This document shows positions 5,438 to 53,844 of a stretch of 64,000 nt of DNA, in pieces (the first letter of the stretch is position 1; every line of letters starts with the position of its first letter). A program made the translations under genes and the position numbers. The DNA is taken from the IMG/VR virus record IMGVR_UViG_3300027759_003166; one strand, written 5' to 3'. Origin of the DNA: a virus (lineage: Duplodnaviria > Caudoviricetes). The notes below the pieces were generated by a model that searched no databases, was not told the DNA's origin, and saw nothing but the letters and a program-made list of their open reading frames with translations.

Positions 5438-5916
5438 TAAGAAATTTCCGATCTACCATCACCTAAATTATTAACATTAATATAACCACTACCACGTCGG
5501 TCCATATTTACACCAGCCTCGGATCCGATATTTCTGCATAAGTCCTGGAACCAAAGATCAACTACGGATTCATCTGTCTCACCTTGATATCCTTCTGTTC
5601 TTAATTGTAGCACAAAGTACTCGTTCCAGTCAAGTTCAAAGAAGCCATTGCGGATATTATCTTTATTAACGTGAGTGTCCATAACTGCTACCCAGGGTTC
5701 TTTCTTTTCTGTAGCAATCTCTTTGGCTGTTTTTTGTTTCTTTATCTTTGGAACCTTAGGTACTGCCACTGGTACATCTTTAACTTCTGGTACAGTTGGC
5801 TCTTCAACTTTTACCGGCTTGTCTTCGATGCCAAATAAATTTTTAATAAATTTTTTCATTGTATTTTCTTTAGTTGGTATAATTGCTTGATCAAGAATGC
5901 CCATTAAGTTCCCCAC
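5437..5916 (-). CDS. hypothetical protein (start uncertain)
   Basis: ORF between queE and rnh, TAATG overlap with rnh. Confidence 0.65.
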   Translation of the reverse strand: MGNLMGILDQAIIPTKENTMKKFIKNLFGIEDKPVKVEEPTVPEVKDVPVAVPKVPKIKKQKTAKEIATEKKEPWVAVMDTHVNKDNIRNGFFELDWNEYFVLQLRTEGYQGETDESVVDLWFQDLCRNIGSEAGVNMDRRGSGYINVNNLGDGRSEIS

Positions 5917-6767
5917 TCATTTTTAAAGAGCGGAACTTGTAAACGATCACTATAACGTAAACCGTGCTTCATTGCTAACAATGCTACATTACGATTGTTC
6001 ATTGCATACACACTTTCAACACCACCTACTGGCATTAGATAGATATGACCAATAAATCCTGCCTTGCGATAAGCAGCAATCGCACATTCGGCATCAGCAA
6101 AGTCTTGTTCTGTGGCAATAACAAACTTCAAATATGCTGTACCGTATTCTTCGTACTCGCAAACACGTTCTGGTTTAATAGCTTCATCCCACGGTTCACC
6201 ACTACACGGTAGTTTAGCACTAACACTAAATGTAACTTCTCTATGGAAATCGTAATCGTGATGATATTTCCAAGTATGTAGGTATTGTTTAAATGGTGCT
6301 GTTAACTGCATAGTACCATTTGTTTCAAACGTAATCTCTTTAAGACCTTGCATCTTAGGATGTTTCAACAAGTCTGGATATTGTTTTTGCCAACCTAACA
6401 ATGGCTCGCCACCGGTAATAACTAGATGTTCATCACGCCATTCACTAAATGGAAGGATCTCCATAATACGTTCTACAATTGCATCTGTAGTCAACATTGG
6501 ACTTAGATCTTTAAAACGTGGATCCCAACTTGCGTAACTATCACACCCTGTACTTACTAATGGCAATTTTTTATAGTCGTCGTAGTAATGAATACGTGCT
6601 GCAATATCTTCTACCTCACGACTTAGTTCGCCACGTGGCATACCAAATCCTTGACATTTAAAATTACAACCAAACGTTCTAAGGAACACGCTGGGCACTC
6701 CCATATAACGTCCTTCACCCTGCACACTATAAAACAATTCTGCTATTTTAATCTTCGACATGTTCAA
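5904..6767 (-). CDS. queE: 7-carboxy-7-deazaguanine synthase-like radical SAM enzyme
   Basis: IAELFYSVQGEG, FLRTFGCNFKC...CDS (Cys motif with long insert), ITGGEP, ETNGT, RLQV tail. Confidence 0.85.
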   Translation of the reverse strand: MNMSKIKIAELFYSVQGEGRYMGVPSVFLRTFGCNFKCQGFGMPRGELSREVEDIAARIHYYDDYKKLPLVSTGCDSYASWDPRFKDLSPMLTTDAIVERIMEILPFSEWRDEHLVITGGEPLLGWQKQYPDLLKHPKMQGLKEITFETNGTMQLTAPFKQYLHTWKYHHDYDFHREVTFSVSAKLPCSGEPWDEAIKPERVCEYEEYGTAYLKFVIATEQDFADAECAIAAYRKAGFIGHIYLMPVGGVESVYAMNNRNVALLAMKHGLRYSDRLQVPLFKNEWGT

Positions 6768-7758
6768 CCTTTATAATTTTAATAGTTTCCATCCAACTAA
6801 GAGTAGTTAATACAATGGTTTTTAATTGACTATATTTAGGTTGCCATTGAGTATCCGACATAAATTTAGTTGGATCTGCAATCAACTCATCTGGGTCACC
6901 TAATCTTCTCGGCCCTAATTCATAATCAACATCTAGACCGGTGGCAGATTCTACTGCTTTTACTATTTCTAGATTGCTAATACCTTGACCTGTTCCTAGA
7001 TTATACGCTTCAAATGTACCCTGGTCAAGTGTTTTAGCAAGATCAACAGCTTGTACGTGAGCACTAGCAATATCTGAAACGTGTAGATAATCTCGAATAC
7101 ACGTACCATCTTTGGTTAAAAAATCATTGCCGTTTAAAATTAATGTATTTTTTTCTAGCACACTTTGTATTACCTTTGGAATCAAATGTGTATCATTCCA
7201 ATTATTACCAAGTTCTACTTCTGGATCACATCCACAGGCATTAAAGTATCTTAGTGCAATACCTTTATATCCATGTGCTTGTACATGACTTTCAATGACG
7301 TATTCACACATCTTTTTACTATGACCGTATGGACTTACAGGTGTACCTTGTGCATATTCAGCAATAGGAACAGAACAATCATTGCCATAAGTTGCTGCAC
7401 TACTGCTAAAGATGATTGTACCTTTCCATCCTAACTTAGATAAGTCGTCTAACATACGATTAGTCTTGGCAACATTATTATCATAATATTCACCAGGATC
7501 AGCAATACTAGGACCAACTAAGCTAGTTCCAGCAATATGTATAATTGTGTCTACATTGTTTATGTTAGCAGCCGTTGCTGTAATGTTTACGAAGTCGTCA
7601 ATGATTAATTCGTTGACAAACATAGAAGCATTTGGAATAGTCCAAGTGCGGTCAATGCCAATTACATAATAGCCAGCCTGCTGAAAGGCCTTAGCGGTAT
7701 GACTACCGATAAAGCCCATCGCGCCTGTTATGATGACTCGTTTAGTATTTTGACTCAC
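6748..7758 (-). CDS. galE: UDP-glucose 4-epimerase-like extended SDR
   Basis: TGAMGFIG Rossmann motif, FSSSAATYG, YGHSK (YxxxK), LRYFN, CIRDYLHV; GTG start at 7758 inferred. Confidence 0.85.
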   Translation of the reverse strand: MSQNTKRVIITGAMGFIGSHTAKAFQQAGYYVIGIDRTWTIPNASMFVNELIIDDFVNITATAANINNVDTIIHIAGTSLVGPSIADPGEYYDNNVAKTNRMLDDLSKLGWKGTIIFSSSAATYGNDCSVPIAEYAQGTPVSPYGHSKKMCEYVIESHVQAHGYKGIALRYFNACGCDPEVELGNNWNDTHLIPKVIQSVLEKNTLILNGNDFLTKDGTCIRDYLHVSDIASAHVQAVDLAKTLDQGTFEAYNLGTGQGISNLEIVKAVESATGLDVDYELGPRRLGDPDELIADPTKFMSDTQWQPKYSQLKTIVLTTLSWMETIKIIKVEHVED

Positions 7759-8917
7759 GAGTATGTTTCCTATAGTCAGTGCCCATACGTAACATACTGT
7801 CACCTGTACCTTCTAATATATTACAAATACGGTCAATAGTACCGTCATTGTAATCACTAATCATACCTAACTTAGGATCTGGCCAAGTTAACAATACTTC
7901 TAATTTATTTAGAGCATCGTCAATAGACCAGGGAACATATAAGCGAGTGTGATCGTTGGCAAAAGTTTCAGGGAAGCTACGATAAGCAGGATACAATACA
8001 TTACAACCTAACGCATCGGCTTCACTGACTGTGTTTGATACCCAGTCTTGCAAAGCACAATTAAACACCACACGACTATCATTAACAATGTTGTAGTAGT
8101 CATTTTTTTCTAGATCCTGATAAATTTTTAGTATGCCCTTGGCCTCTAGATTGCGTGTACGTTCCATATAGCTTTCGCTATTTGATTTAAGTTTGCCACC
8201 ACTACATACACAGAATTCTGTGCTGTTACCTGGATGTCGTTTGTAGAACTCTTCAATGAGATCCATATAGAAGTCTGGTTGCTTCTCTTGATCCCACCGT
8301 GCTGAGAATACCACACGATTCTTGCGTTCAGCAAATGGTTTAATATTTCCTACACGACCTTGTACTTCACTCTTGCCAAATGCTAATCCACTGATATTGT
8401 AGATTGGACTTTTCCAACCTGCAATCTTCATATGCATTACCATTTCTTCATTAGTTGCAAGTACTCCGTCCACAAATGAGTCAACCATTTTTTCGTAGTG
8501 ACCCATGAAATCCTGCATACCCCATACATGAACAAAATCGTCAGGATCAATGGACTGAGCAAGACAGCGAACATAAATCCTAGGCCTGTGAATAGGATCA
8601 ATTTGCTTAAGAATATACGGAAGACTTTCGATTCCGGGCTGAAACATGTCTTCAAAGTAGACAACATCTTCATTATTCAATTCTCCTTGTTTCATCATCT
8701 TAATTAGATTCATTAGCTGTGACATACCAAAGTATGTACGACCATGTGCATCCAATACTTGACCTGTTACGATTGCTTGGTCATTGCTGAGTGTTTCGCC
8801 AGGCACAACAATATAGTCGATACCGCGACGATCGAATACAGCAGTATTCCAGTCTTGCAATTGATATGTATATCGGGCGACATATTTTTCTAACCCCATA
8901 TAATATAGTTTACGCAT
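7742..8917 (-). CDS. GT-B fold glycosyltransferase (GT4-like)
   Basis: FSARWDQEKQP, EADALGC..LYP..SFPE C-terminal nucleotide-sugar-binding pattern. Confidence 0.65.
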   Translation of the reverse strand: MRKLYYMGLEKYVARYTYQLQDWNTAVFDRRGIDYIVVPGETLSNDQAIVTGQVLDAHGRTYFGMSQLMNLIKMMKQGELNNEDVVYFEDMFQPGIESLPYILKQIDPIHRPRIYVRCLAQSIDPDDFVHVWGMQDFMGHYEKMVDSFVDGVLATNEEMVMHMKIAGWKSPIYNISGLAFGKSEVQGRVGNIKPFAERKNRVVFSARWDQEKQPDFYMDLIEEFYKRHPGNSTEFCVCSGGKLKSNSESYMERTRNLEAKGILKIYQDLEKNDYYNIVNDSRVVFNCALQDWVSNTVSEADALGCNVLYPAYRSFPETFANDHTRLYVPWSIDDALNKLEVLLTWPDPKLGMISDYNDGTIDRICNILEGTGDSMLRMGTDYRKHTRESKY

Positions 8918-9153
8918 TATTGATCCTGATATTCACGTTGGGGCTTTCCAGAAGCCTCGCGACGTGCCTTACGCTGCAAATACTCTTGTTCTTGTTGGAA
9001 CCTACGATAGTCATTGGAACGATAAAGATCCTTCTCATTGTAGGGGAGAAGATTAAATCTGCAATGATCTAACCAAGCATCGAGATCATCAAAGATCCGA
9101 TTAACTTCGGGTTTCATTTTAAGAGTTTTTTGAATGTAATTTGGCTGTGCCAT
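8917..9153 (-). CDS. hypothetical protein (78 aa)
   Basis: ORF coupled (TAATG) to the glycosyltransferase. Confidence 0.65.
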   Translation of the reverse strand: MAQPNYIQKTLKMKPEVNRIFDDLDAWLDHCRFNLLPYNEKDLYRSNDYRRFQQEQEYLQRKARREASGKPQREYQDQ

Positions 9154-9170
9154 TTAAGTTTTTCCTATTA

Positions 9171-9554
9171 TTAGGGTTGATTAACAAATGTAAGTGTGGC
9201 ACCATTCTCGCCATCTTCACTTACGTCAATGATGGTCTTACGACCAGGGTACCTTGCGGTAATTGTCGTGTTAAGTTCACGAGCAATCATTTCACAAGAT
9301 TTGTGGTTGAGTTCAAGAATGCCATCATTGTAGCACTTCTCAAGCCAACGCTTAAACTGGATAAATTCAATATCGCGGTCATCTTGGAAGACCTCAATAG
9401 AAACTTTAAAATGGAAAATGTGTCGATGTGGAGTTCCAAGGAAACTTACATCATATTCGTCGCCTGTGGCCAACTTAGGATCAGTTGCGGCTGCGGGATA
9501 GCAGTGAATACCTTCTTTTTGAAATTTCACCCAGATAACTGATAAATCGTTCAT
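9171..9554 (-). CDS. divergent QueD-like T-fold protein (possible DpdL-type CDG decarboxylase)
   Basis: LGTPHRHIF, DIEFIQFKRWL, SCEMIA motifs; lacks canonical CxxxHGH. Confidence 0.6.
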   Translation of the reverse strand: MNDLSVIWVKFQKEGIHCYPAAATDPKLATGDEYDVSFLGTPHRHIFHFKVSIEVFQDDRDIEFIQFKRWLEKCYNDGILELNHKSCEMIARELNTTITARYPGRKTIIDVSEDGENGATLTFVNQP

Positions 9555-10069
9555 TTAATTACTTCGTCTTTGGTATATTGAGACCAGTCTGTAAAGGTCT
9601 CACGGGTTAATAAATTGTGTAGGCTATGACACCACACACCGGGGTTTGTCGACTTGAAGTTGTTGTCGTCAAGTTTAATTATAGCATTATAACCTAGTTG
9701 TTGTAAATAGGGCAGTTTCACCGAAATCATTGGAATGAAATTATGATACTCAGCAAATCCAGTTTCTAACAATCCTTCTACACACTTAACATCTACGTCC
9801 AATGTACATTGATAATCTCTGTTAAGGAAATACTTGATCATATTTTCCCAGTCTACCCAACCACGAGCATTGGTGTCATAATTAGGAAAACTTTGATTAG
9901 CACCAAAGTAGATATGCTCGCAGCCGTTGAGTTTGGCAGCAATAGCATCTACATCTTGTACACCAACAACAAACAATGTTCTCTTACCGTATGCAGGAGT
10001 ATGTTCTACTTCCGTACCGTAGAAGAAGTCTGCGTTTTCGTGTCCTTCTCTTTCCATTTTATTCTCCAA
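9551..10069 (-). CDS. hypothetical protein in deazaguanine operon
   Basis: ORF overlapping both neighbours. Confidence 0.7.
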   Translation of the reverse strand: MENKMEREGHENADFFYGTEVEHTPAYGKRTLFVVGVQDVDAIAAKLNGCEHIYFGANQSFPNYDTNARGWVDWENMIKYFLNRDYQCTLDVDVKCVEGLLETGFAEYHNFIPMISVKLPYLQQLGYNAIIKLDDNNFKSTNPGVWCHSLHNLLTRETFTDWSQYTKDEVIK

Positions 10070-11618
10070 GGTCGTCGCTTAATTTCTGTAATGCTGAATC
10101 ATTAGCATCTGAAAGATCAATTTCATCAGCACGAGTAACTTCTTCAACATCAAATAATCCACCAAATAGATTATCATTCTGTCCGTTAGTGGTGTTACGA
10201 GCACCTGCAATACTGATCAAGAATGCCTTAGCAGTTGGATGCTCTAACATCTCCATGGCTTCTGTTAATGTTTTGGTATTAAACAATTCTTCAACAAAAC
10301 GATCAAAGTACAATACATTACGTGGCACCCATTCACTAAACTGATCACTGGCAAGTTCTTTGGCGTTAAGTTTCTTCCATGAACGCCAGTCTGGTTTGAA
10401 TCTTGCACTTTCGATGTCAGCATAATGATTAGCACGTTGTACTGCCTCAATATGACATTGTACATTATGTGCCATATACAATGAATAAGCAAAACTATCC
10501 CAAGAAGTTTTACCTTCTTTGCCAATCTTGTTTAACATTCCTGGAGCATAATGACAAATGTCGCCCATTACAAGTCTGCGGCCGATCTCTGATTCAAAGG
10601 GGAATGGGATATCGCTTCCTGCAAGTGCTTTGTTGTCTGGGGCTTTTTCCATAACAACACTGAACTTTTTCGAAGTGTGGATTGGGTTTGTGTAAACGAG
10701 TCCGTGTGCTGTTGCGACAAACGGTGAGGCGCAGTCAAAAGATATGGTAACTTCTTCATTAATATGTTTCCTGAGTTGTCGTTGAATTGAAGTTAGATAG
10801 CAAGCCCAATCTAACTGTGCTGTACCCAAGAAGTGGATCCAGTTCTTGCCTGTGAGCATGCCTTCCTCGCGCATGATCATCAAACGCTTTAAAGTGATGT
10901 CCATCTTACTCATATTGACACCACCCATTGCCCAACCCTCTGCTGCTTTATCTCCCCATACAGCAGGGTCACTATATTCTTTAACACCTTCATACCAAGA
11001 CTGTGCGCTATGCCAATCGCTGCCTTGTAAAACATTTAACCACTTGGTCTTACCTAACCGATTCTTTAAAAAGTAATCGTTATTGAAACGAGTTTTTTGT
11101 AAACAATCAGCAGGACTTGTTAATCCGGTTCTTGCTTGATTATTCTTATCACAGGCCCAAATAGGCACATCCAACATCATTGACCAGTCAGCAGTTAATT
11201 CTAACCAAGCAATAATAGAATCACGAGTTTTGTTGGCTGCTTTACCTTCAAAGTCTTGCCAATCAAACTTTAAAATGCCTTTACCAATCTGATATCCACC
11301 TGAGTCACCTAAGATCATAGTTTTAGCATGATTACGATCGTGTATCATGACTTCTTGTACCAAACTTTTTTCTATATCTAACTGTGCATGACCGGCAGAG
11401 TATAGACCATAATTATAAGTAAAGTATCCTTGCTCTTCGTTTAAGAAGTTCATACCTTCGATACCACGATCAAATCCTTTAGGGATACGATCCTTGGGTA
11501 CAAAATCACTTAGTCGTTGTTTGGCAACGTAGGTGCTGTAGAAACTGCTGATTGCTGGCAAATAGCAGGCATAATCCCTATTCAGGGGCGATAAATCAAC
11601 TGGTGGATTACTTTTCAT
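10059..11618 (-). CDS. tRNA-guanine-transglycosylase-like (DpdA-type) DNA transglycosylase
   Basis: TGT motifs in order: GDSGGYQ, MMLD.P, VLQG, WAMGG, HFLG, SFDCASP; start at ATG 11618 inferred. Confidence 0.75.
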   Translation of the reverse strand: MKSNPPVDLSPLNRDYACYLPAISSFYSTYVAKQRLSDFVPKDRIPKGFDRGIEGMNFLNEEQGYFTYNYGLYSAGHAQLDIEKSLVQEVMIHDRNHAKTMILGDSGGYQIGKGILKFDWQDFEGKAANKTRDSIIAWLELTADWSMMLDVPIWACDKNNQARTGLTSPADCLQKTRFNNDYFLKNRLGKTKWLNVLQGSDWHSAQSWYEGVKEYSDPAVWGDKAAEGWAMGGVNMSKMDITLKRLMIMREEGMLTGKNWIHFLGTAQLDWACYLTSIQRQLRKHINEEVTISFDCASPFVATAHGLVYTNPIHTSKKFSVVMEKAPDNKALAGSDIPFPFESEIGRRLVMGDICHYAPGMLNKIGKEGKTSWDSFAYSLYMAHNVQCHIEAVQRANHYADIESARFKPDWRSWKKLNAKELASDQFSEWVPRNVLYFDRFVEELFNTKTLTEAMEMLEHPTAKAFLISIAGARNTTNGQNDNLFGGLFDVEEVTRADEIDLSDANDSALQKLSDDLGE

Positions 11619-12412: not shown

Positions 12413-15085
12413 TTATTCAAAGCTGAATAATGAACCAAAATTATTTGTTTGTGTAGTAGATTCTAGATCCCACTCTAGAACTCCGATAAGATTATCGAGT
12501 TTATTATTAATAATAACAGTTTCCATATCAGCGTGATCAAATGGTAAGTCTTGAAACCATTTAGGTAGTCGTAGTTCGTCAACCGGATATGCCACGCTGG
12601 TATAGCCAAGTGGATTATCTTTTAACTTACAAACAATTACTTTCATACCATCGACAATATTGGTGCTGTATTTGTCACCATTCATACGTTTAAGAGTATT
12701 CCAGTTGATACTAGCACGAACATGTCCGGGCATATTTGCTTTACCTGCCTTACGTTCTTTTTCTTGATATTCAGCAATGTTGTTGGCACGTTTAGGACTA
12801 CCCTTCTCCCATCCAGGTCGTGCTTTAAATTCAGTTCTAAATTCATTAATCATATCAAGAATTTCTTCTTCCTGACTACCATTTAGAACTTTGGTTAGTA
12901 CTTCTTCAAGAAACTTCTGCATGAATTCTGGAGTATCGCTACGTTTCAAATCTAAACCCATGGCTTTAATTTTGCCAGGTTTAGTATCACTGTCATATCT
13001 CTTGCCATCCTTGTCATAGTACAATACAGCATAACGCTTTTTGGTAATAAACAAGCCTTTGATAGCAACAATTTCACGTCCTGCTTTAATAACTTCACCA
13101 CGTGATTTTGGACAGTGGAATGTATCTAACATGAATTGTGGAAATGTAGCATTAACATTATCTGCAATTGTATTGTATAGTTGTATAGCAATATCTTTAT
13201 CCCAAGGTAGTAATTTCTTTTGAATATCAATCTTTAATGTATTGTAGGCAGAGAAGTAACAACTGTCTGTATCACCATATATAATACTTTTACCAACGTG
13301 ATCAAAATCACCTGTAATAACTTCATTAACTTTACCTGCCATATGGCGAGCAATGGCACGACCGGTAAGTGTGGTACTTTGTCCAATACGCTTGTCAAAG
13401 AATCTGCAACCTGGATTCAAAATAGCACCGTACAAACTATTCAAGTTAATCTTCTTAACCAGTTGTCGTTTGTCCCAGTATTCTTCTTCAATCTTATTGC
13501 CGGCATCGATTGCTGCTTTAAGTTTCTTCTGCATGTCTTTACGCTCACTGTACCAGCGAGCCAGCAAGCCGGGAATAATACCTTCTTGCTCATGGGTAAA
13601 GATTGTGCCATTTGCACTGAGCATCCATGGGTTATTACTTTCATATATTAATCTATAAGCCTCGGCACCGCTTAGTATATCATACTCGCCATTTTCCCAA
13701 TCAATGGTAATTTCAAATGCACGATCTTGTCGCATTACTGCTTCGAATTCTAAGCTGCCAAACATACCTTCCCATGCAGCCGCAAAGGATTTTTTATCCA
13801 ATGTTGTTTGTTTATGAATAAATTCATCGGTATTAGTTTGTCGTATTTGTCCAACAATGGTTTCTGGACCCATATTCAATGCACGAATAACACTGGGATA
13901 TAGACTGTTAATGTCCATGCTTCCGATGTAATCATGTAATCCTTTTTTAGGATATGCTACATAAGCACCTGCGGCTTGATTGTTTTCAGTCTCATCACGC
14001 TTGGCACGACTTGGAACAATTAACCCTCTGTGATGTGCTTCATTAACAATTGCTTGTTCTGTTACTGCCACGGCACCCATGGTGGTCTGTAGCAATACAG
14101 TACATTCGTGTGCTAGTGTATTGGCAAGATCTATAAACTTTAGTTTCTTATCTAACTTATCAAGTAGTGCGGTATCTTGTCTATTGTATTCAATGAACTT
14201 GCGGAAGTCTTTATTATAAAGTTGATCCAGTGTACCTTCGTAGACAGTCTTGCTCTCACCTACTTCCATCTCTCCAATGGCATCGAGCCTGTAGGTATGG
14301 CGTTCTTCGTAGGTGTATTTCCTGTACAGTTCGAGACTGTCCAAATGAACGCGACCAATAAGATCATAAGTAACAGCCTGTTTCCCATATTTCTCGTATT
14401 CTCTCTTTTTTGGAAATTGATCCCACAAACAAAATCTGCGTGTATCTTCTTTGCTCAATACCTTAGTGACTCTATTAACAGTATAAGGAATATCAAAACC
14501 TTCACTATTCCAACCGCTTAATACATCAGCATCTTCAATTAATGTTAGAAATGCATCTAACATCTCTGCTTCTGTTTCAAACAACACAGTATTAGGAAAG
14601 TCCTTGACCTGTTCCTTAGCCTGCTCCATGGTTAGAGTCTTGGGTGGAACAGCAAAACATACCAGTGTGTCTAACCATTGTAAGTGAACAGCGATCGCAG
14701 TGATGGGCATAAAAGCATCTTCAGGAGTGCTATAGCCACGTTCCGGATCAAAGTCTACCTCAATGTCAAAAAATGCTACGTGTAATTTTGGTGGATCAAT
14801 GCCGAGATAATGATCTTCCAAACAGCGGAATGCTGGTTTGATATCGCTTTCGTAGAGTCTACGTTCGCCGTGGATGCGTAGTTCTTTTTGAAAGTCCTTG
14901 TTATTTCTACAAGTAACTTTATTTAGATTCTCACCGTAGATTGATTTGTACTTACCCTTTTGATCAGGATAATAAAAGATAAATTTGGCAGGATATTCTT
15001 GATAGATTCTACCCTTCTTTGCATCGCGCTCAACTACCTTAACAATATCTTTGTCGCGATCCCACCATGCGTCAACATATGACAT
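12413..15085 (-). CDS. family B DNA polymerase (T4 gp43-like)
   Basis: Exo FFDIEVD, SGWN, YNRQD; Pol DINSLYPS, KINLNSLYG, YGDTDS, KKRY. Confidence 0.95.
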   Translation of the reverse strand: MSYVDAWWDRDKDIVKVVERDAKKGRIYQEYPAKFIFYYPDQKGKYKSIYGENLNKVTCRNNKDFQKELRIHGERRLYESDIKPAFRCLEDHYLGIDPPKLHVAFFDIEVDFDPERGYSTPEDAFMPITAIAVHLQWLDTLVCFAVPPKTLTMEQAKEQVKDFPNTVLFETEAEMLDAFLTLIEDADVLSGWNSEGFDIPYTVNRVTKVLSKEDTRRFCLWDQFPKKREYEKYGKQAVTYDLIGRVHLDSLELYRKYTYEERHTYRLDAIGEMEVGESKTVYEGTLDQLYNKDFRKFIEYNRQDTALLDKLDKKLKFIDLANTLAHECTVLLQTTMGAVAVTEQAIVNEAHHRGLIVPSRAKRDETENNQAAGAYVAYPKKGLHDYIGSMDINSLYPSVIRALNMGPETIVGQIRQTNTDEFIHKQTTLDKKSFAAAWEGMFGSLEFEAVMRQDRAFEITIDWENGEYDILSGAEAYRLIYESNNPWMLSANGTIFTHEQEGIIPGLLARWYSERKDMQKKLKAAIDAGNKIEEEYWDKRQLVKKINLNSLYGAILNPGCRFFDKRIGQSTTLTGRAIARHMAGKVNEVITGDFDHVGKSIIYGDTDSCYFSAYNTLKIDIQKKLLPWDKDIAIQLYNTIADNVNATFPQFMLDTFHCPKSRGEVIKAGREIVAIKGLFITKKRYAVLYYDKDGKRYDSDTKPGKIKAMGLDLKRSDTPEFMQKFLEEVLTKVLNGSQEEEILDMINEFRTEFKARPGWEKGSPKRANNIAEYQEKERKAGKANMPGHVRASINWNTLKRMNGDKYSTNIVDGMKVIVCKLKDNPLGYTSVAYPVDELRLPKWFQDLPFDHADMETVIINNKLDNLIGVLEWDLESTTQTNNFGSLFSFE

Positions 15086-15773: not shown

Positions 15774-16316
15774 TTATAAACGAGCGTCTATAATGTTCCA
15801 ATTGATAATTTTCCAATGATTATTTAGATAACCTTTTTTATCGGCTTGGTAATCCAATGACCAAGCATGTTCCCAAGCATCAATTAAAACAATAATATCT
15901 TTCTTTATAGAATGATTGGGAATTATTTTTATATCACCATTGCTTGATAGATAGCACCAGCCACTTCCTTGAATGGACATAAACGATTTGGTAAATTCTT
16001 CTTTGAAGTTATCAAAAGATTTAAAATGTTGATCAATAAACTCTTTGGATGCACCAATTGGTGTATTTTCTTCATCTGGAATCTGTAGTTGTGGAAAGTA
16101 TATACTATGTAAGTAAGCACCTGCTTCATTAAAGTCTAGATCACCTTCGCCGCTGTTATAGCGATTAACATAGGTTCTGTATAGTTTGCCATAATGATAA
16201 TCTATAGCATCTTCACTTAACACAGGTTCTAATGCATCTCGGGCATAGGATAATTTCACTTGTTCAAGTGTTTTGATCTCTTTGCCTTCTACTACATATT
16301 TTATAAAATTAAACAT
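15774..16316 (-). CDS. sod: Fe/Mn superoxide dismutase
   Basis: LEP..S....YHY, AYLH, GSGW, DAWEHA metal-ligand motifs. Confidence 0.85.
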   Translation of the reverse strand: MFNFIKYVVEGKEIKTLEQVKLSYARDALEPVLSEDAIDYHYGKLYRTYVNRYNSGEGDLDFNEAGAYLHSIYFPQLQIPDEENTPIGASKEFIDQHFKSFDNFKEEFTKSFMSIQGSGWCYLSSNGDIKIIPNHSIKKDIIVLIDAWEHAWSLDYQADKKGYLNNHWKIINWNIIDARL

Positions 16317-16906
16317 TATTTCTTTTTACCTGCTTTCATATTAGCGGCCCAATGTGCTAATTGTGCTGCTCGTCCTGAATGACTTTTGGCAAACTTTCTC
16401 AAACTGCTAATACTAGCATGTTTAGGAATACCGTGCCTTGCACTATCACCTTTATCCTCGGGATGACGTCCGTCAGCAAAATTCTCTGCTACATCCTGCT
16501 GACCTTCCACAGTAAGCCTGTCTAATGCTATTGGATTTAATACAACATTCGGTTTCAAGCCTTTGGTGTTAGCATAGGCCACATACACTTGATCTGTGGG
16601 TTCTATAACAAAACTCACACAATGTTTACCGGGCCAGTCTGGTTTGCCCACACTAAACCAAATGCCTATCACAGGAATAAATGGATGTTCATCTGTGCTC
16701 AACCGACCATATTCCCGTTCGCCTGTGGCGTCACGCCGAGGTTTTAGTCCTCCACTTTTCTTAATTGCTTCTAGCCTATTGGTACAATGATAAACCCTTT
16801 GCCCCACTATGTCTTGTCCAGGAAATAGATTCGTACCAGGAACATTCTTAGGTGGTCTAACTCCCTGGTAGTTGGTAAAGTTTTCAACTAGTTCGTTGAT
16901 ACGCAT
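16316..16906 (-). CDS. putative internal head protein: ADP-ribosyltransferase-like domain + basic C-terminal module
   Basis: N-terminus MRINELVE; VYHCT...GGL.P and GIWFS motifs; QQDVAE linker. Confidence 0.5.
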   Translation of the reverse strand: MRINELVENFTNYQGVRPPKNVPGTNLFPGQDIVGQRVYHCTNRLEAIKKSGGLKPRRDATGEREYGRLSTDEHPFIPVIGIWFSVGKPDWPGKHCVSFVIEPTDQVYVAYANTKGLKPNVVLNPIALDRLTVEGQQDVAENFADGRHPEDKGDSARHGIPKHASISSLRKFAKSHSGRAAQLAHWAANMKAGKKK

Positions 16907-17689
16907 TTAGCAATTCCATTTACGTAATGCCAATGCCTTGCGTGTAGGTTCACCATTGGGCTTTTTCATAGGACCATCAACTCCACCCATTCTAGCACAG
17001 AATGATTTACGGCGTTTGGCGGATTTACTGCCAGCTTTTAATTTACTGGGTTTAGTGGTAACTGCCGTTTGTAGTTTGCTACCAGGGTGCTCTCTACGAT
17101 AACTAGCAACACCTTTGGCATTTAGTCCGCCAGACTTGCTTTTGCCGGCCTTACGATGCCACGCAGCAGATTCATTTAATTCATCTTCTAAAAACGTATC
17201 AGCAAACTTTTCGCATAGTGCTCTAATGTCTGAGTTGTTTGTTTCTTGTAGAGTAAATTCTCTTTCTTCGTGTTCGTCGTCACCTTGGCTTGGATCCATA
17301 TAACCGCAATATACTTTACGTATGATAGAATTATTGATTAGATCGGTACAACTATCTCCGTGCCTTTCTTGTGCAGTTTCATCACTAAATTCACTGCAAG
17401 GACTCAGCGTAGTAATAAGAATACTGCCTTCTGGAATGTCACCATATTTTCTATCATAGGCTTCCATGGCTGCTTTCTCTGCATGAACATGTAAATCGCC
17501 TTGCATATAATTCAATCCTAAAACTAAATTATTGTCAGGATCTAATACAGCAGCAGCAACCATGCCGTAACGTTCGCTATCCCTTTTCTGGCCTTCAATA
17601 ACCAGTTTGCAGAGTTTAACCAAGATACCGTCCAACTTGGTTAGATTGCGTATCTCGTAGTCAGTTTGGTCAAACTCTGTAAATCTCAT
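16907..17689 (-). CDS. zinc-dependent nucleotide deaminase domain fused to basic C-terminal module
   Basis: HAE...TLSPC..(insert)..C deaminase signature; ELNE junction; N-terminus MRFTEF. Confidence 0.7.
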   Translation of the reverse strand: MRFTEFDQTDYEIRNLTKLDGILVKLCKLVIEGQKRDSERYGMVAAAVLDPDNNLVLGLNYMQGDLHVHAEKAAMEAYDRKYGDIPEGSILITTLSPCSEFSDETAQERHGDSCTDLINNSIIRKVYCGYMDPSQGDDEHEEREFTLQETNNSDIRALCEKFADTFLEDELNESAAWHRKAGKSKSGGLNAKGVASYRREHPGSKLQTAVTTKPSKLKAGSKSAKRRKSFCARMGGVDGPMKKPNGEPTRKALALRKWNC

Positions 17690-29161: not shown

Positions 29162-31409
29162 TTTTTTCTACCTTAACTACAGGCAATACTTCAACGATGT
29201 TGAGTTTAAGTTTGTCATCTTCTACTGATACTTCAACAACACCACCATTAACCAGCTTACCAAACAAGATTTCCTTGCTTAATGGCTTCTTAATGTATTC
29301 ATCAATAGTACGTTGTAGAGGACGAGCACCCATTTTGCTATCAAAGCCTTTCTTAATCAAATACTCAATAGATTCTGCGTTAGGTTTAACGTGTACATTC
29401 TTGTCTTTGATTAATGCGTTAAGTTCGTCAACAAACTTCTTAACAACTTTGGTCATACTTGTGTGATCCAACTTGCCAAACTTAATAATTCCATCTAAGC
29501 GATTACGGAACTCAGGTGCAAAGAATTTGTTAACAGCATCCTTAGGATCACCATCACGCTCTAAACTACCAAATCCAACACCATTCTTTTCAGCATCAGC
29601 AGCACCTAAGTTACTGGTCATAATGATAATAGCATTTCGACCATCTGCTTTCTTACCATTGCTGCCAGTAATAAAGCCATTATCCATTAATTGTAGCATA
29701 ACAGTAAGCACATCTGGATGAGCTTTTTCAACTTCGTCCAACAATAGAACACAGTTAGGGTGTTCTTGTAGATTAGTAATTAGCTGACCAGCATTATCTT
29801 CGAATCCTACGTATCCAGGAGGAGCACCGATGAACTTAGCCACACTGTGTTTCTCTTGATATTCGCTCATATCAAATCTAACCAGTTTAATACCCATATT
29901 GCCAGCAAGTTGTTTAGCAACTTCTGTCTTACCTACACCAGTTGGACCAACAAACAAGAAGCTACCTACTGGTTTATTGAATGCTTTTAGTCCTGCTTGG
30001 GCAATAAAGATCTTATCCAGTAGTGTTTCAATTGCTTTCTCTTGCCCAAACACTTTACCACGCATACTTTTTTCAAGTCCTGCAAGGTTAGAACCTTCTT
30101 TAGCACTAATTTGATCTAGTGGAAGATTGGCAATCTTTGCTACTTCGAATATAATCTCGTCGTGATCCACTACGCCGTTTTCTTCATCTTTGAGTTTAAA
30201 GCGAGCACTGGCACAATCAATAAGATCAATGGCCTTATCTGGCAATTTCTTATCACTCATATACTTGACAGAATATGTTACTGCGTCTGTAAGTGCTTGG
30301 TTAGTGATTTTAACATTATGATGTTTTTCGTAATACTTACGTAGACCTTTAAGAATCTTAATAGTAGTTGCTTCACTAGGCTCATCTATAGTAACACGTT
30401 GGAATCGACGCATCAATGCACGATCTTTCTCAAAATGTTTGCGATATTCTTCCCAGGTTGTGCTGGCTACAACTTTAATAGTACCTTTGCTCAATGCAGG
30501 TTTAAGCATATTTGCCATATCATTGCTGCTACCACTGTTAGCACCAGCACCACTCATCATGTGTGCCTCATCAATGAACAAGATACAGTTCTTTTTCTTT
30601 TCTAGAGCACCTAATACCATCTTTAAACGTTCTTCAAAGTCTCCACGATACTTACTACCTGCTAGCATAGCACTAATGTCTAGACTATAAACAGTATTAT
30701 CTTGAATAAATTTAGGAACACTACCTTCAACGATCTTACGTGCTAGTCCTTCTGCAATAGCAGTCTTACCTACACCTGGATCACCAATGAGCATTACGTT
30801 GGCTTTATTCCTACGTGCCAATACTAATTGAACTTCTTCAATCTCTGTTTCGCGTCCAATAACAGGATCAATCTTTTTAGATTTAGCACGAGCAGATAGA
30901 TTAACGCAGTACTGGTTAAGCATACGTTCAATTTGTGGATTTACAGGTTTCTCAACTTCTTCTTCCTGTTCTTCTTTATCAAACTCTTTCTGTACGTAGC
31001 TTAGAAACTTATCTTTGTCAATATTTGCCTTGCGTACAAAGTAAAATGCGTGACTTTTCTTTTCAGCAAACATACTAACAAAGCAGTCTACTGGTTCAAT
31101 AAGTAGTCTACCTGAAAACAATGCTGTTTGATATGCACGATGTAGCATACGATCAACAGTGGCAGTTTTCTTAGGGCGATCAAGGTCGTTAGTGACAATT
31201 TCATTAAGATCTGTGGTTATATATTTTTCTAAATCCTTAACCATTGAATTAACATCTGTACCAAAGTTAGTTAATAGTTTAGCAAATGGTTCATTTTTAA
31301 TCATACCGTACAAGAAGTGTTCCAGAGTAACATATTCATGACGATGTTCGTTGGCAAATCCAACGGCTGAATTGAAAATGTCTTCTAGGTCTTTGTTTGG
31401 TTGTAGCAT
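29133..31409 (-). CDS. clpA: ATP-dependent Clp protease ATP-binding subunit ClpA
   Basis: Clp-N (HEYVTLEH), DPVIGR, GDPGVGKT, GPTGVGKT, DMSEYQEKHSVAKFIGAPPGYVG, MGARPL. Confidence 0.92.
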   Translation of the reverse strand: MLQPNKDLEDIFNSAVGFANEHRHEYVTLEHFLYGMIKNEPFAKLLTNFGTDVNSMVKDLEKYITTDLNEIVTNDLDRPKKTATVDRMLHRAYQTALFSGRLLIEPVDCFVSMFAEKKSHAFYFVRKANIDKDKFLSYVQKEFDKEEQEEEVEKPVNPQIERMLNQYCVNLSARAKSKKIDPVIGRETEIEEVQLVLARRNKANVMLIGDPGVGKTAIAEGLARKIVEGSVPKFIQDNTVYSLDISAMLAGSKYRGDFEERLKMVLGALEKKKNCILFIDEAHMMSGAGANSGSSNDMANMLKPALSKGTIKVVASTTWEEYRKHFEKDRALMRRFQRVTIDEPSEATTIKILKGLRKYYEKHHNVKITNQALTDAVTYSVKYMSDKKLPDKAIDLIDCASARFKLKDEENGVVDHDEIIFEVAKIANLPLDQISAKEGSNLAGLEKSMRGKVFGQEKAIETLLDKIFIAQAGLKAFNKPVGSFLFVGPTGVGKTEVAKQLAGNMGIKLVRFDMSEYQEKHSVAKFIGAPPGYVGFEDNAGQLITNLQEHPNCVLLLDEVEKAHPDVLTVMLQLMDNGFITGSNGKKADGRNAIIIMTSNLGAADAEKNGVGFGSLERDGDPKDAVNKFFAPEFRNRLDGIIKFGKLDHTSMTKVVKKFVDELNALIKDKNVHVKPNAESIEYLIKKGFDSKMGARPLQRTIDEYIKKPLSKEILFGKLVNGGVVEVSVEDDKLKLNIVEVLPVVKVEKNADTEATIQ

Positions 31410-31912
31410 TATTTGTACTTTCTCTTTACTTTAGTTTTCTTAACTGCCATAGCCCATTTAAGGCTGCTGACTCGATCTTGGAATGTAATTCCCTCAAGAT
31501 GATCATATTCATGTAAGAAGCACTTACAGTTATAACCATCAAACTCTCCTTCTTCAAATTCTCCTCGGCTATTCTGCCAACGAGCCTTAATTGCTTTAGG
31601 TCGTTTAATATTAACATATATTCTTGGAAAACTCAAGCAACCTTCTTCCATATCAGCAATTTCTTCTGTATTACCAATTATAACAGGATTAAAGAATGCC
31701 TGAGCAGCTTCTGGATTTACTCTATGCCCCATAACAAACACACGGGCAGCAATGTTTACCTGATTAGCAGCAAGTCCAATGCCGTCAGCGGCAAACATAA
31801 TTTCTAACATTGCCTTTTCAAGTTCTACAGGATCCATTATAGGATTAGCAAAGTCAAAATCAGGCATACGTTGCCTAAGTATCGGGTCGGGGAATTTTAT
31901 AAGTGTCAACAT
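31409..31912 (-). CDS. def: peptide deformylase
   Basis: GIGLAANQV, EGCLS, HEYDHLEG. Confidence 0.92.
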   Translation of the reverse strand: MLTLIKFPDPILRQRMPDFDFANPIMDPVELEKAMLEIMFAADGIGLAANQVNIAARVFVMGHRVNPEAAQAFFNPVIIGNTEEIADMEEGCLSFPRIYVNIKRPKAIKARWQNSRGEFEEGEFDGYNCKCFLHEYDHLEGITFQDRVSSLKWAMAVKKTKVKRKYK

Positions 31913-31920
31913 AATAATAT

Positions 31921-32739
31921 TTACAAATTGATTTGTCTAAGCATTTGTTTTTGATATTCATTAAGATTAGTCGGTATAGTAATATTAATGTTCAATAATA
32001 GTCTGCCTTTCATGTATGCGTTAGATATATTTGGCATACCGTGTCCTTGCACAGCTAATGTTTGCCCATGTTGTGTACCAGGTGCAATGTTCACTTCTAA
32101 TGTACGACCATCTATAATAGTAAATGGTATATTTTTTCCTAGAATTGCATCTATACAATTAACCTGCAAGGTTTTAACTAAATCATCTCCCTGACGTTGA
32201 AATTCATGATGTGGCATAACGTGTACTGAAAGATGTATGTCACCCCTGGGTGCATTACTAACAGAATCGTCGCCCATTCCTGATAATCTCAGTGTAGTTC
32301 CGTCGACTACACCTGCTGGAATTTTAATTTCTAATACTTGATCTCTGCCCGACGGTAGAGTAATATTAGCAATAAGATCTTTTCCGTAATATGCTTCTTC
32401 TAAGGTAATTTGAGTTTGGAGATTTAGATTTCTATTTCTCATAGGTGGCCCACGCCTACCAAACATATCTCCAAAAGGATGTCCACCACCAAATGCATGA
32501 TGAAACATTTCTTCAAATCCCTGGGGTCCACCAAAGTGGAATCCCTGTGGTTGAGGATTATCGTATTGTTGTCTTCGTTGAGGGTCGCTTAATGTTTCGT
32601 AAGCTGCCTGTACTTCTTGAAACTTAGCTTTATCACCGCCGCGATCTGGATGATGTTGATTAGCCATTCGGCGATAAGCAAGTTTAATGTCGTCTGGTCT
32701 GGCGTTTCTATCCACGCCCAAAGTTGAGTAATGATCCAT
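31921..32739 (-). CDS. dnaJ: DnaJ/CbpA-type co-chaperone
   Basis: J domain with HPD, G/F-rich linker, C-terminal DnaJ_C, no Zn finger. Confidence 0.9.
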   Translation of the reverse strand: MDHYSTLGVDRNARPDDIKLAYRRMANQHHPDRGGDKAKFQEVQAAYETLSDPQRRQQYDNPQPQGFHFGGPQGFEEMFHHAFGGGHPFGDMFGRRGPPMRNRNLNLQTQITLEEAYYGKDLIANITLPSGRDQVLEIKIPAGVVDGTTLRLSGMGDDSVSNAPRGDIHLSVHVMPHHEFQRQGDDLVKTLQVNCIDAILGKNIPFTIIDGRTLEVNIAPGTQHGQTLAVQGHGMPNISNAYMKGRLLLNINITIPTNLNEYQKQMLRQINL

Positions 32740-42783: not shown

Positions 42784-43308
42784 CTATTTTAAGAATTCTC
42801 TTATATCAAGCTCAAACTTTATTGAGTCTATTTTGTGAACACCTAGCAAGTATAGGCAATAACTGGCTACACTACTACCACGTCCTACACCCCATACTAG
42901 GCTATTTTCTCTCATTGTGTCTACTAAGTATTTAAGATAACCTAGTAGCTCAATCATGTCATATTGGACAAATAATTCCAGTTCTTCTAATACTCTATTA
43001 GTTTCCACATCCGTTTTACACAATGATAGCAAATGTTCTACTATATTTAATGATGTAGATTTATACTCTTCTGGCATAAACCAGTCATTTTGTAAATCTA
43101 AATCAAATTGCTTCAATGACGTATTTGGATCTTTGTAAGTGTTCAGATATTCAAAATTATCTCTATTTAGATCTTTGGCAGTATTAAATTGATCCACTGT
43201 AGTTTGATCCACGTGGATATTTTTAAATGTTTTTATTTTACCCGTATAAAGGGCATCAAACATTTCTGTAGAAGATACTAGAATAGCACCGTACTCATTT
43301 ATTGTCAT
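42784..43308 (-). CDS. stand-alone DnaE (Pol III alpha)-like fragment
   Basis: RVLEEL...Y..LVD......VWGVGRGSSVASYCLYLLGVHKIDSIKFELDIREFL. Confidence 0.75.
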   Translation of the reverse strand: MTINEYGAILVSSTEMFDALYTGKIKTFKNIHVDQTTVDQFNTAKDLNRDNFEYLNTYKDPNTSLKQFDLDLQNDWFMPEEYKSTSLNIVEHLLSLCKTDVETNRVLEELELFVQYDMIELLGYLKYLVDTMRENSLVWGVGRGSSVASYCLYLLGVHKIDSIKFELDIREFLK

Positions 43309-47300: not shown

Positions 47301-47617
47301 CCTTGAGCACCTTGGCTTGCCTGTGTACCTTGAGCACCTCGAGTGCCTTGTATACCCTGAACACCAGAACCTTGAGTACCCTGGGCACCTTGAGCACCCT
47401 GAGGACCTTGTACACCTTGAATTCCCTGTATACCCTGTCTTCCTTGTGTGCCTTGTAATCCAACACTACCTGTATATCCTGCAACACCAAGCAATTGTCT
47501 TGCTACAACAGTTGGTAATAATCCTTCAATTCCGTCATTTTTTATAACAAATTGAGCAGAAGAGGGCGTGGCCCCGGGAATTACTGGTAATGTATTCAGT
47601 TCGGCTCTAATTGGCAT
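44369..47617 (-). CDS. collagen-like tail fibre with C-terminal intramolecular chaperone (peptidase S74)
   Basis: two long G-x-Q blocks; SDQRLKTNI...GLLAQQVEAVLPE...Y..IVPLLVEAIKEL. Confidence 0.88.
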   Translation of the reverse strand: MPIRAELNTLPVIPGATPSSAQFVIKNDGIEGLLPTVVARQLLGVAGYTGSVGLQGTQGRQGIQGIQGVQGPQGAQGAQGTQGSGVQGIQGTRGAQGTQASQGAQGYNGAQGSQGVQGARGSQGIQGTQGIQGVQGPAAAAALTANTSTNLAGGVRGSIPIQNGTSSTSFISTGSTGNILQYSGSTATWVSTSTLMVGKAASSSNSDNEYITNATSVLGNWYITMASGTSGYYPLNNSSDLSYSTTNKKLSVPSVTITTSTAAVSSTTGALTVAGGAGIQGDLYVGGQIVAEKLVIQYTTVTTTLIKTDDIISTYNYTNATSTSSAAMVVAGGLGVGRDIYFGGNLYQNGVLFTGGGGSQGIQGSNGRQGTQGAQGGQGVQGSGAQGSQGTGTQGNQGVQGRDGSAVAQGSQGSQGIQGRQGIQGADGIGTQGIQGSTGRQGTQGAQGGQGIQGEAGVDAQGIQGSNGRQGTQGAQGGQGVQGQAGTAQGATGPVGPTAAQGANGVQGNQGVQGQAGNVQGAQGSIGSLGIQGNQGVQGQAGTAQGANGAQGSQGVTGNQGTRGIQGQAGVDATGTQGANGTQGSQGVIGIQGSQGVQGSGAQGAQGNLGIQGNQGVQGQAGNVQGANGAQGSIGATAAQGAQGGQGVQGQAGNVQGANGAQGSTGATAAQGATGAGTQGAIGTATQGATGAAGAGTQGANGSGTQGSQGITGAQGNQGTQGLQGLQGIQGVQGLQGIQGVQGIQGATGTAGAGTTQQVIYNNAGTLAGDANLLWALNGGAGSKRSLYVGGTAGTNGWGMFAKSFNFATNSSIYDGTSNGDKLEFAVQGLSRMNLTGDNGLAVQSVVSINNYGGTAAAGVLRFGAAGSGTYMAHDAANSSGLGAGLFIAGMDTIVGNNKNLKVTGETTSTKYTATSGEIRLQNFNSNSNSGVVRFGTGMDQYLFYNGDSGFGPVAYYLAKGEMYFGYGGTHNLSVTGDVIAYSASDQRLKTNIKPITNAVDKINKLDGITYNWNELARDRDTTLTEAGLLAQQVEAVLPEVVTTREDGYMAVKYERIVPLLVEAIKELSAEVKELKKQLAKI
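46169..46542. repeat. 71-bp exact direct repeat inside the collagen block
   Basis: 46169-46239 equals 46472-46542; degenerate third copy at ~46261-46320. Confidence 0.8.
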
Positions 47618-47943: not shown

Positions 47944-48408
47944 ATGTTTAAAAAAATTAAAGAATTCTTCGTAGGTAAGCCCGTAGAAGTAAGCACACCT
48001 GTTCCATATAAAGTAGAAACATATGTTCCTCCAGTAACGGTAGAACCACCTGTAGACGAACATCAACTAGCGGTTCAACTAGCACAGGATGGAGTAAATG
48101 CAGGTAAAACTAATGAACAAATGGCTGTTGAAATTAACAGTAAATATGGCAAAAGTTTTACTGCTCAAAATGTAGCTGATTTTATTGCAGCCAACAATAT
48201 TGTTGCATCTACACCTGTTGTAGATCAAGTGGCAGTAGTAAGTGCTGCCGAAGGTTCTGCTCTATCAGTTGAACCAGAAAAGAAAGCACGTAAACCACGT
48301 ACTCCTAAGGCAGAAACAGCGGTTAAAGAAAAAGCCCCAGCAAAAGCCAAGGCTCCTAAATTGACAGTTGTCAAAGCTGAAAAGAAGCCTAACTCAAAGA
48401 AAGCCTAA
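47944..48408 (+). CDS. hypothetical protein with Lys/Ala/Pro-rich basic tail
   Basis: AAGGA RBS; histone-H1-like C-terminus. Confidence 0.7.
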   Translation: MFKKIKEFFVGKPVEVSTPVPYKVETYVPPVTVEPPVDEHQLAVQLAQDGVNAGKTNEQMAVEINSKYGKSFTAQNVADFIAANNIVASTPVVDQVAVVSAAEGSALSVEPEKKARKPRTPKAETAVKEKAPAKAKAPKLTVVKAEKKPNSKKA

Positions 48409-50652: not shown

Positions 50653-50681
50653 ATTTTTCTCTTTTTAAAATTATATATTAA

Positions 50682-51341: not shown

Positions 51342-51342
51342 T

Positions 51343-53840: not shown

Positions 53841-53844
53841 AATT

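Follow-up and report, generated by a model that had tools for sequence, protein, structure and literature searches.

Conversion of GTP to 7-carboxy-7-deazaguanine (CDG) by way of FolE, QueD and QueE is an established route. To our knowledge, eight 7-deazaguanine derivatives occur in phage DNA, none of which bears a sugar, and all known glycosylation of DNA is found on hydroxymethyl pyrimidines (and base J). In a described system, that of phage phiST, DpdL is a paralogue of QueD in which the signature LxxxHRHxF substitutes for the CxxxHGH of QueD, and it has been proposed in the literature to be a CDG decarboxylase; the DNA of phiST, phi13:1 and phi19:2 contains the deoxynucleoside of 7-deazaguanine (dDG), and that of phiST is fully dDG (PMC10516641). 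A glycosyltransferase is never mentioned in this defining 2023 paper (PMC10516641). Here we describe a run of genes in the IMG/VR virus record IMGVR_UViG_3300027759_003166 (Duplodnaviria; Caudoviricetes), analysed as a stretch of 64,000 nucleotides that is referred to throughout as the window. In this run an enzyme resembling tRNA-guanine transglycosylase (TGT) and DpdA, a DpdL and a QueE are accompanied by a glycosyltransferase (GT) and a UDP-hexose 4-epimerase (GalE). We propose, with a probability of about 0.55, that the GT adds a hexose to a deazaguanine-derived base in a DpdL-type system devoid of QueC. We put at a little short of even odds the possibility that a 7-deazaguanine carrying a sugar replaces guanine in the phage DNA, in which case it would be the first purine known to be glycosylated in natural DNA. 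Deazaguanine modification of DNA by DpdA and DpdL is known; the new element is a conserved glycosyltransferase component, from which an undescribed DNA base is predicted.

Linkage of the glycosyltransferase to the deazaguanine module

The genes of the run are tightly packed (Table 1). The TGT-like ORF (p533) is followed by p172 after a gap of 2 nt, p172 and DpdL overlap in the sequence ATGA, a 17-nt spacer lies between DpdL and p78, and the p78 stop shares TAATG with the GT start. The probable GTG start of GalE (7758) falls 17 nt within the GT gene and the ATG of QueE 14 nt within GalE, while QueE overlaps the next gene, again in TAATG. The run is an operon-like, translationally coupled block. 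The initial annotation had listed the same order from polB to QueE, all on the minus strand and with QueD at 54874, and this stands as described. It had also noted that QueC, QueF and FolE are missing from the window; none was found among the ~50 window ORFs in a Pfam scan. Its designation of the run as a 7-deazaguanine DNA-modification operon is borne out by QueD and QueE without QueC, by DpdL, and by the fold and motifs of the TGT-like protein.

The order polB, clamp, TGT-like gene, (p172), DpdL, (p78), GT is kept in ~65 of the 80 IMG/VR loci that possess a close GT homologue (loci are numbered with the prefix L below), and the remaining ~15 are mostly truncated contigs. In the same loci QueE, often together with QueD and FolE, is located downstream where the contig extends. 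This gene order survives a fall in identity to 55% for the polymerase and to 33 to 46% for the TGT-like protein.

The association is also found in a distant GT subfamily that is ~22% identical and shares ~27 invariant residues. In Xanthomonas phage BUDD the GT gene lies directly upstream of the TGT-like gene, after which come DpdL and QueE; FolE is located further upstream. The GT is likewise directly upstream of the TGT-like gene in the metagenomic lineages L085 and L086; in L086 an unconfirmed 122-aa ORF occupies the DpdL position after the TGT-like gene, and is succeeded by a radical-SAM gene, FolE and a PTPS-family gene. EST35_0317 of Pseudomonas phage PA5oct, located between the DpdA-like gene and DpdL, and gp124 of Acidovorax phage ACP17, located between DpdA3 and DpdL, are members of the GT family (hhalign, 99.7% and 99.8%, respectively). 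Phage Phosso has DpdL and GT adjacent to each other, right after polB and the clamp, and BCSR5 and cyanophage BUCT-ZZ01 each hold both genes. The neighbourhood survey of the GT family with dpdA that the initial annotation had suggested was thus strongly positive: in each of six groups of cultured phages (PA5oct, ACP17, Phosso, BUDD/X1, BCSR5 and BUCT-ZZ01) the GT has TGT-like and DpdL genes as its neighbours, in varying order.

Among 50,697 phage records, DpdL was detected in 29, the GT family in 23 and both in 18, always within ~4 kb of one another (per-record Fisher p ~1e-57, the records representing about six independent lineages). The five records with a GT only are weak matches of the PhiXhv/Ep032 group, in a GlmS/BshB-like context without DpdL; 11 records, phiST among them, have DpdL only. 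All confident members of the GT family are therefore accompanied by DpdL, while the converse fails. Since the GT occurs only with DpdL, and phiST makes dDG without a GT, the enzyme would act on top of the DpdL pathway. We conclude that the GT is a genuine, integral member of the deazaguanine module and no chance neighbour; chance falls far short of accounting for an arrangement that recurs in these IMG/VR loci and in several cultured, unrelated phages. In metagenomes, clustering at 90% identity yields over 7,000 clusters for each of the two key proteins, mostly from large phage contigs, many of them freshwater.

This linkage bears on an alternative explanation, namely that the DNA is plain dDG as in phiST, and that the GT and GalE have targets unrelated to deazaguanine (a virion protein, a host envelope glycan or another DNA base, for example), their place in the operon being that of co-expressed early or anti-defence genes. 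The weak PhiXhv/Ep032 matches, which lie away from DpdL, are in keeping with this idea, as are the generic GT4 fold of the enzyme, with best matches that use small-molecule or lipid acceptors, the want of an acceptor hydroxyl on 7-deazaguanine (DG), and the presence in the window of a separate second sugar island, so that the phage glycosylates other things. It is countered by the persistence of the GT beside DpdL and the TGT-like gene at ~22% identity, across diverse phage sizes and hosts and in rearranged order, by the proximity of DpdL (within ~4 kb) in 18 of 18 confident GT-positive records, and by the relatives, in which no hydroxymethylase-type ThyA paralogue was seen. We judge it unlikely, and prefer the addition of a sugar to a deazaguanine-derived base.

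No Pfam match was obtained for the clamp-like protein, which belongs to PHROG 12062, a family without assigned function; its identity is 43 to 100% across related IMG/VR loci and drops to 35% in PA5oct. It invariably lies between polB and the TGT-like gene, and has a syntenic counterpart annotated as a sliding clamp in Phosso. For p172, searches of Pfam, PHROG, NCBIfam and the Atlas gave zero matches. It is present at the same position in 35 IMG/VR loci, and its homologues among the 50,697 phage records are confined to PA5oct-like phages (47%) and ACP17 (35%, adjoining DpdA3). A profile search of the PDB for a fold of p172 returned only designed 'Cake' repeat proteins, which were discarded as spurious. 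No match to p78 was found in Pfam, PHROG or NCBIfam; tblastn located it in 54 loci, immediately upstream of the GT in those listed.

Table 1. Genes of the deazaguanine run in the window, in order of transcription, and the distant QueD gene.
Feature	Coordinates	Strand	Evidence and remarks
Family B DNA polymerase, polB	12413-15085	-	PF00136, PF03104; PHROG 262, E 1.6e-199; heads the run (replication module)
Clamp-like protein, 244 aa	11623-12357	-	Identity from synteny only
TGT/DpdA-like base-exchange enzyme (predicted), 519 aa	10059-11618	-	Fold and motifs; start is M15 of the ORF
p172 (168-172 aa, conserved)	9551-10057	-	Without family match; tracks the module
T-fold protein DpdL, 127 aa	9171-9554	-	LxxxHRHxF signature; PHROG 17812
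p78 (78 aa, basic, pI 8.8)	8917-9153	-	Without family match
GT-B glycosyltransferase, 391 aa	7742-8917	-	Weak PF00534; GT4-like fold
GalE, UDP-hexose 4-epimerase	6748-7758	-	TIGR01179, PF01370
QueE, probable radical-SAM 7-carboxy-7-deazaguanine synthase	5904-6761	-	PHROG 2076 'QueE-like', E 5e-50
Probable QueD, 6-carboxytetrahydropterin synthase family	54874-55353	-	PF01242, 54.5 bits; 43 kb from the operon

The base-exchange enzyme and the deazaguanine precursor

The TGT-like protein gave no match in Pfam, PHROGs or NCBIfam, nor by sequence in the PDB. The PF01702 (TGT) and PF23859 (DpdA) models do not match the window protein, and PF01702 is touched by just 2 of 64 family members (E 0.0045). 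As the curated Pfam models for TGT and DpdA miss it, the protein represents a divergent subfamily, for which an exhaustive HMMER search yielded 843 representatives at 50% clustering. The motifs GDSGGYQ and SFDC, with their D, S, G and D positions, are invariant in an alignment of 64 members. We take them to be the two catalytic-aspartate motifs of TGT, their aspartates presumably corresponding to D102 and D280 of the Z. mobilis enzyme. An AlphaFold (AF2) model built on the same alignment had a mean predicted local distance difference test score (pLDDT) of 92.3 and a predicted template-modelling score of 0.92. When this model was compared with the PDB using Foldseek, the top 50 matches were all tRNA-guanine transglycosylases (E ~1e-7, target-normalised template-modelling (TM) score ~0.5), and a PDB profile comparison aligned the DSGG region with TGT residues 99 to 235. 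Alignment of the family with hhalign gave 96% for the ACP17 gene at the DpdA3 position, 95.7% for the annotated TGT of BUDD and 94% for a 416-aa protein of BUCT-ZZ01; the value for phiST DpdA3 was weaker, at 67.5%. The Atlas neighbours of the protein are bearers of TGT or DpdA. The call of a TGT/DpdA-like enzyme in the initial annotation is upheld by fold and motifs, even though Pfam, PHROGs and NCBIfam are blind to the protein. On the modelled structure, the 519-aa protein belongs to the TGT superfamily, as a long and divergent relative of DpdA3. It is a predicted DNA guanine transglycosylase, and we infer that DNA would be its substrate.

Every fold match being a tRNA-guanine transglycosylase, the enzyme might instead modify host or phage tRNA, in a queuosine-type pathway with glycosylation like that of eukaryotic QTMAN. 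The sole trace of QTMAN for the GT is a pair of bacterial QTMAN_N clusters among its Atlas feature neighbours (ranks 50 and 62). A specific kinship of the GT with QTMAN/GTDC1 was rejected, as PF12038 goes unmatched (E up to 0.01) and GTDC1 does not appear among the top 30 fold matches in Swiss-Prot. Moreover, no tRNA genes were found in the window, the TGT-like gene adjoins polB and the clamp-like gene, and its relatives include the DpdA3 proteins of ACP17 and of phiST, the latter a phage with fully dDG DNA. The DNA of PA5oct is itself restriction-resistant: several enzymes whose recognition sites include G fail to cut it, and host sensors of modified G attack it (PMC12191111), which lends outside support to modification of guanine in DNA. 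We consider a role in tRNA very improbable, and return to exchange of a base in phage DNA.

The T-fold protein contains LGTPHRHIF, which conforms to the DpdL signature LxxxHRHxF. By tblastn it is 58% identical to ACP17 DpdL, 56% to a PA5oct protein and 34% to those of phiST, phi13:1 and phi19:2. By these sequence criteria the protein is DpdL. The initial annotation had recognised a T-fold gene and had envisaged CDG as the base; the fold stands, the assignment is refined to DpdL, and the base expected before addition of the sugar becomes DG, as in phiST, in place of CDG.

Gene content outside the window was taken from the long IMG/VR records of five relatives. The initial annotation had proposed a search for folE and queC beyond the window. 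FolE is encoded in all five, and a convincing QueC was found in none, including one record rated 100% complete by CheckV. As QueC is missing while FolE and DpdL are present, the pathway would stop at CDG and take the DpdL branch. The window QueE is matched by five QueE models of NCBIfam at 39 to 56 bits, each under its cut-off, and scores 26.9 bits against Radical_SAM (cut-off 29.5). QueD exceeds the cut-off of PF01242 and falls below that of TIGR03367 (33.8 bits). It had been described as canonical, but its motif is not: CNLIHGY stands in the place of CxxxHGH, with a zinc-ligand histidine changed to tyrosine. In other lineages the QueD orthologue lies within the operon, beside QueE. Its amino-acid identity is still 84 to 98% in distant lineages.

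The glycosyltransferase, its sugar donor and its proposed acceptor

The window GT scores 22.3 bits against PF00534 (Glycos_transf_1), under the cut-off of 26.4, and PF00534 is present in most of its BUDD-like relatives. Its AF2 model (pLDDT 84) has the two Rossmann domains of the GT-B fold. The best PDB fold matches are sucrose-phosphate synthase (SPS), MshA, BshA, PimA and PglA, with VIA Z scores of 21 to 25 over 300 to 345 residues. An EX7E motif is a hallmark of the GT4 family. In the subfamily of the window GT it takes the variant form D291-x7-E299, E299 being invariant, and in the BUDD-like subfamily the form E-x7-E. The model is that of a GT-B enzyme with a GT4-like, retaining fold. The closest viral fold matches (TM 0.7 to 0.8) are an unnamed protein and then ACP17 gp124 (TM 0.68 to 0.77). 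The DNA glucosyltransferases AGT and BGT of T4 found no support as nearest relatives: neither occurs among the 50 best PDB matches, and 'DNA alpha-GT' entries come up only at viral ranks 10 and 34, with TM ~0.45.

GalE scores 300.5 bits against the equivalog model TIGR01179 (cut-off 262.3). This equivalog match makes UDP-hexose or UDP-N-acetylhexosamine (UDP-HexNAc) the likely sugar donor, as far as sequence can tell, and GalE its likely supplier. Some lineages have extra genes inserted between DpdL and the GT. In eight loci a fusion of a cytidylyltransferase-like (NTase) domain with a mannose-6-phosphate-isomerase (PMI) cupin is located close upstream of the GT (for example L024 8356-9150, with an ORF between fusion and GT, L055 7479-8243 and L079 4414-5193), and other lineage-specific accessories include DegT-like, kinase-like and B12-radical-SAM genes. 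A small phosphoribosyltransferase (PF00156) lies inside the module of PA5oct (L002 11416-12380) and of BUCT-ZZ01 (L001 4093-4554); as it is absent from the five jumbo relatives, it was discarded as a core partner.

The GT gene shows a patchwork pattern. Relative to the near relative L013, p78, GalE, QueE and FEN are 93 to 99% identical in DNA, whereas the first 150 nt of the GT and its C-terminal two-thirds, the donor-binding half, show 76 to 85% DNA identity (7720-8470, 8770-8919), a pattern that looks like a recombined or swapped allele. Across L003 to L082, GT protein identity is ~79 to 87% whether polymerase identity is 97% or 55% (74 to 80% in DNA), which points to strong purifying selection on ~80 to 85% of residues together with allele shuffling, and to no recent transfer. 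A donor-binding half swapped between otherwise near-identical phages suggests that the sugar may vary under arms-race pressure, in the way that patterns of glucosylation vary among T-even phages.

It is from the strict gene linkage only that we infer the sugar-addition step, and several findings weigh against it. DG has no hydroxyl for a sugar, so that an O-glycoside would need another step, failing which the linkage would be an unusual N- or C-glycosidic one. No more than 2 of the 80 loci have a 2OG-Fe(II) oxygenase immediately ahead of the GT (L017 9319-10008 and L009 9420-10004). The nearest structural neighbours of the GT act on small molecules or lipids and none on DNA. GalE is not universal: the initial annotation had paired GT and GalE in the operon, and a GalE-like gene is immediately downstream of the GT in 33 of 76 loci, the neighbouring sugar-nucleotide genes varying by lineage. 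The GT family is acidic (pI ~5 to 6); the TGT-like protein is acidic too, so that charge does not discriminate, and net charge was set aside as an uninformative indicator of DNA binding. Finally, co-expression of ACP17 DpdL and DpdA in E. coli produced no dDG (PMC10516641). The window DUF6445 protein (53845-54444) was considered as a counterpart of the 2OG oxygenase and rejected, there being no similarity between the two; its match to a 'putative hydroxylase' in the PDB is weak (E 0.15).

Possible bonds are an N- or C-glycoside on the pyrrolopyrimidine, whose pyrrole ring is electron-rich, an ester to the carboxylate of CDG, or an O-glycoside formed after an unrecognised oxidation. A hydroxymethyl-pyrimidine acceptor is not in sight, as the thymidylate synthase (ThyA) homologues of the relatives score ~350 bits, as canonical ThyA does. 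A route through hydroxymethylcytosine or hydroxymethyluracil was accordingly found unsupported in the parts of the genome sampled: the relatives have ThyA of canonical score only, and the window encodes a dCMP deaminase and no hydroxymethylase.

The structural neighbours of the GT use small acceptors, pterin glucosyltransferases included, and this keeps glycosylation of the free base before insertion alive. A further step in this direction would be that the GT modifies a soluble intermediate, either a pterin (CPH4 or H2NTP) or free CDG or DG, to give a transient handle or a separate metabolite, with no sugar in the DNA. UDP-glucose:tetrahydrobiopterin glucosyltransferases (Z ~22), MshA and BshA are indeed among the structural neighbours, but Z scores are tied over many GT4 enzymes and the match to pterin glucosyltransferases is hence unspecific. 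The acidic GT, and the phosphoribosyltransferase, kinase-like and nucleotidyltransferase genes that recur in related clusters and hint at small-molecule chemistry, would suit a soluble product; a benefit to the phage from such a glycoside is not evident, and the module is always embedded in replication genes alongside a DNA base-exchange enzyme. We rate this explanation as slightly less likely than plain dDG with a GT directed elsewhere.

The pathway we favour, in which the sugar ends up on a deazaguanine-derived base, would begin with conversion of GTP to CDG by FolE, whose gene would lie outside the window, and by QueD and QueE. DpdL would convert CDG, most likely to DG, and the divergent TGT/DpdA3-like enzyme would exchange guanine in phage DNA for the modified base. 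The GT would place a sugar from UDP-hexose or UDP-HexNAc, maintained by GalE, on the deazaguanine-derived base, acting either on the free base before its insertion or on the DNA afterwards. The outcome would be a glycosylated deazapurine that shields the DNA from restriction enzymes, and perhaps from enzymes recognising plain deazaguanine.

According to the initial annotation, such a hypermodification is not known to have been characterised; in agreement, full-text literature searches (deazaguanine with glycosylation, PA5oct nucleosides) returned no publication describing a sugar-bearing deazapurine. If the proposal is correct, glycosyl-deazapurines would join the DNA bases as a further chemical class and would give GT-B enzymes an acceptor of a new type, and any of the bond options (N- or C-glycoside, ester or O-glycoside) would be new enzymology for a GT4-like enzyme. 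The sugar-bearing base would add another layer to the contest between phage modifications and host sensors such as type IV restriction enzymes, END nucleases and Dag glycosylases. The GT module may also explain both the failure of ACP17 DpdL and DpdA to produce dDG in E. coli and the 'modified G' of PA5oct.

Genome context and comparison with known systems

Coding in the window is almost wholly on the minus strand, and its G+C content is ~39%. The nearest cultured relative of its polB is that of Sinorhizobium phage Phosso (51%), followed by Atu_ph07 and the Rak2/CBB-like group, affinities that are those of giant phages. Megablast of the operon against the 50,697 phage genomes gave zero matches, which identifies the window phage as an uncultured jumbo phage. 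IMG/VR includes an identical contig (10 kb) and many related contigs from environmental samples. The source is a freshwater jumbo phage without a close cultured relative. Promoter and terminator scans of the window gave no signal exceeding a shuffled background.

Immediately downstream of QueD lies an island of low G+C content (30 to 31% against ~39%) at 49720-54444. It encodes an NDP-sugar epimerase/dehydratase, an FkbM methyltransferase, two unassigned ORFs, a GT17-like glycosyltransferase and the DUF6445 protein, and is probably a second, acquired glycosylation cassette. Auxiliary genes of the kind found in jumbo phages are located at 544-2971, 15774-17689, 31409-32739, 48394-49458 and 55435-56019. 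Their products are a DUF2201 metallopeptidase/VWA protein with a MoxR-like AAA ATPase, an Fe/Mn superoxide dismutase and a dCMP deaminase-DUF6321 fusion, and also peptide deformylase, DnaJ, the UV endonuclease UvdE and ClpP. A 174-aa ORF resembling part of the NTPase domain of DNA polymerase III alpha adjoins a 1082-aa ORF (42784-43308 and 44369-47617), and the two may represent a split or second replicative polymerase beside polB. A protein of ~450 aa without a Pfam family recurs with the module (L001 6010-7353, L008 16518-17888). In BUCT-ZZ01 its gene adjoins the DpdA-like one, and homologues with 43% identity occur in 27 jumbo-phage loci; the window lacks it.

Among known glycosyltransferases, the alpha and beta enzymes of T-even phages such as T4, which act on 5-hydroxymethylcytosine, resemble the window GT in being phage GT-B enzymes that use a UDP-sugar donor, and in a strategy whereby a modified base and then a sugar are set against restriction. 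Their acceptor, however, is the hydroxymethyl group of a pyrimidine, and neither such a group nor a hydroxymethylase is evident for the window phage. MshA, BshA and a cyanobacterial tetrahydrobiopterin glucosyltransferase are alike in fold (Z 22 to 25 over ~310 to 340 residues), in the D/E-x7-E motif and in the use of UDP-hexose or UDP-HexNAc; they differ in being only 8 to 14% identical, in having inositol phosphate, malate or a pterin side chain as acceptors, and in lacking an association with TGT or Que genes.

The phiST system (Cui, Hutinet et al., NAR 2023, PMC10516641) shares with the window phage FolE, QueD and QueE without QueC, a DpdL paralogue with LxxxHRHxF, and a divergent TGT-like DpdA beside DNA polymerase genes. 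Its DpdA3 is 259 aa long as opposed to 519 aa in the window, it has MazG and a small ATPase instead of a glycosyltransferase and epimerase, and its base is plain dDG.

ACP17 and the Pseudomonas jumbo phage PA5oct also have a DpdA-like gene, a GT-family member, DpdL and QueE. Their order is DpdA, GT, DpdL, their GTs are shorter (342 to 353 aa) and ~20 to 23% identical to that of the window, and a full GalE is absent, PA5oct having a half-length epimerase-like gene and a phosphoribosyltransferase. The p172 homologue adjoins the cluster in ACP17 and lies ~26 kb away in PA5oct. In the literature the GTs of both phages are hypothetical proteins (PMC12191111 for PA5oct). PA5oct also shows the window order of polB, clamp-like gene and DpdA-like gene. 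Since cultured phages, this phage of P. aeruginosa among them, carry the module, the prediction is directly testable.

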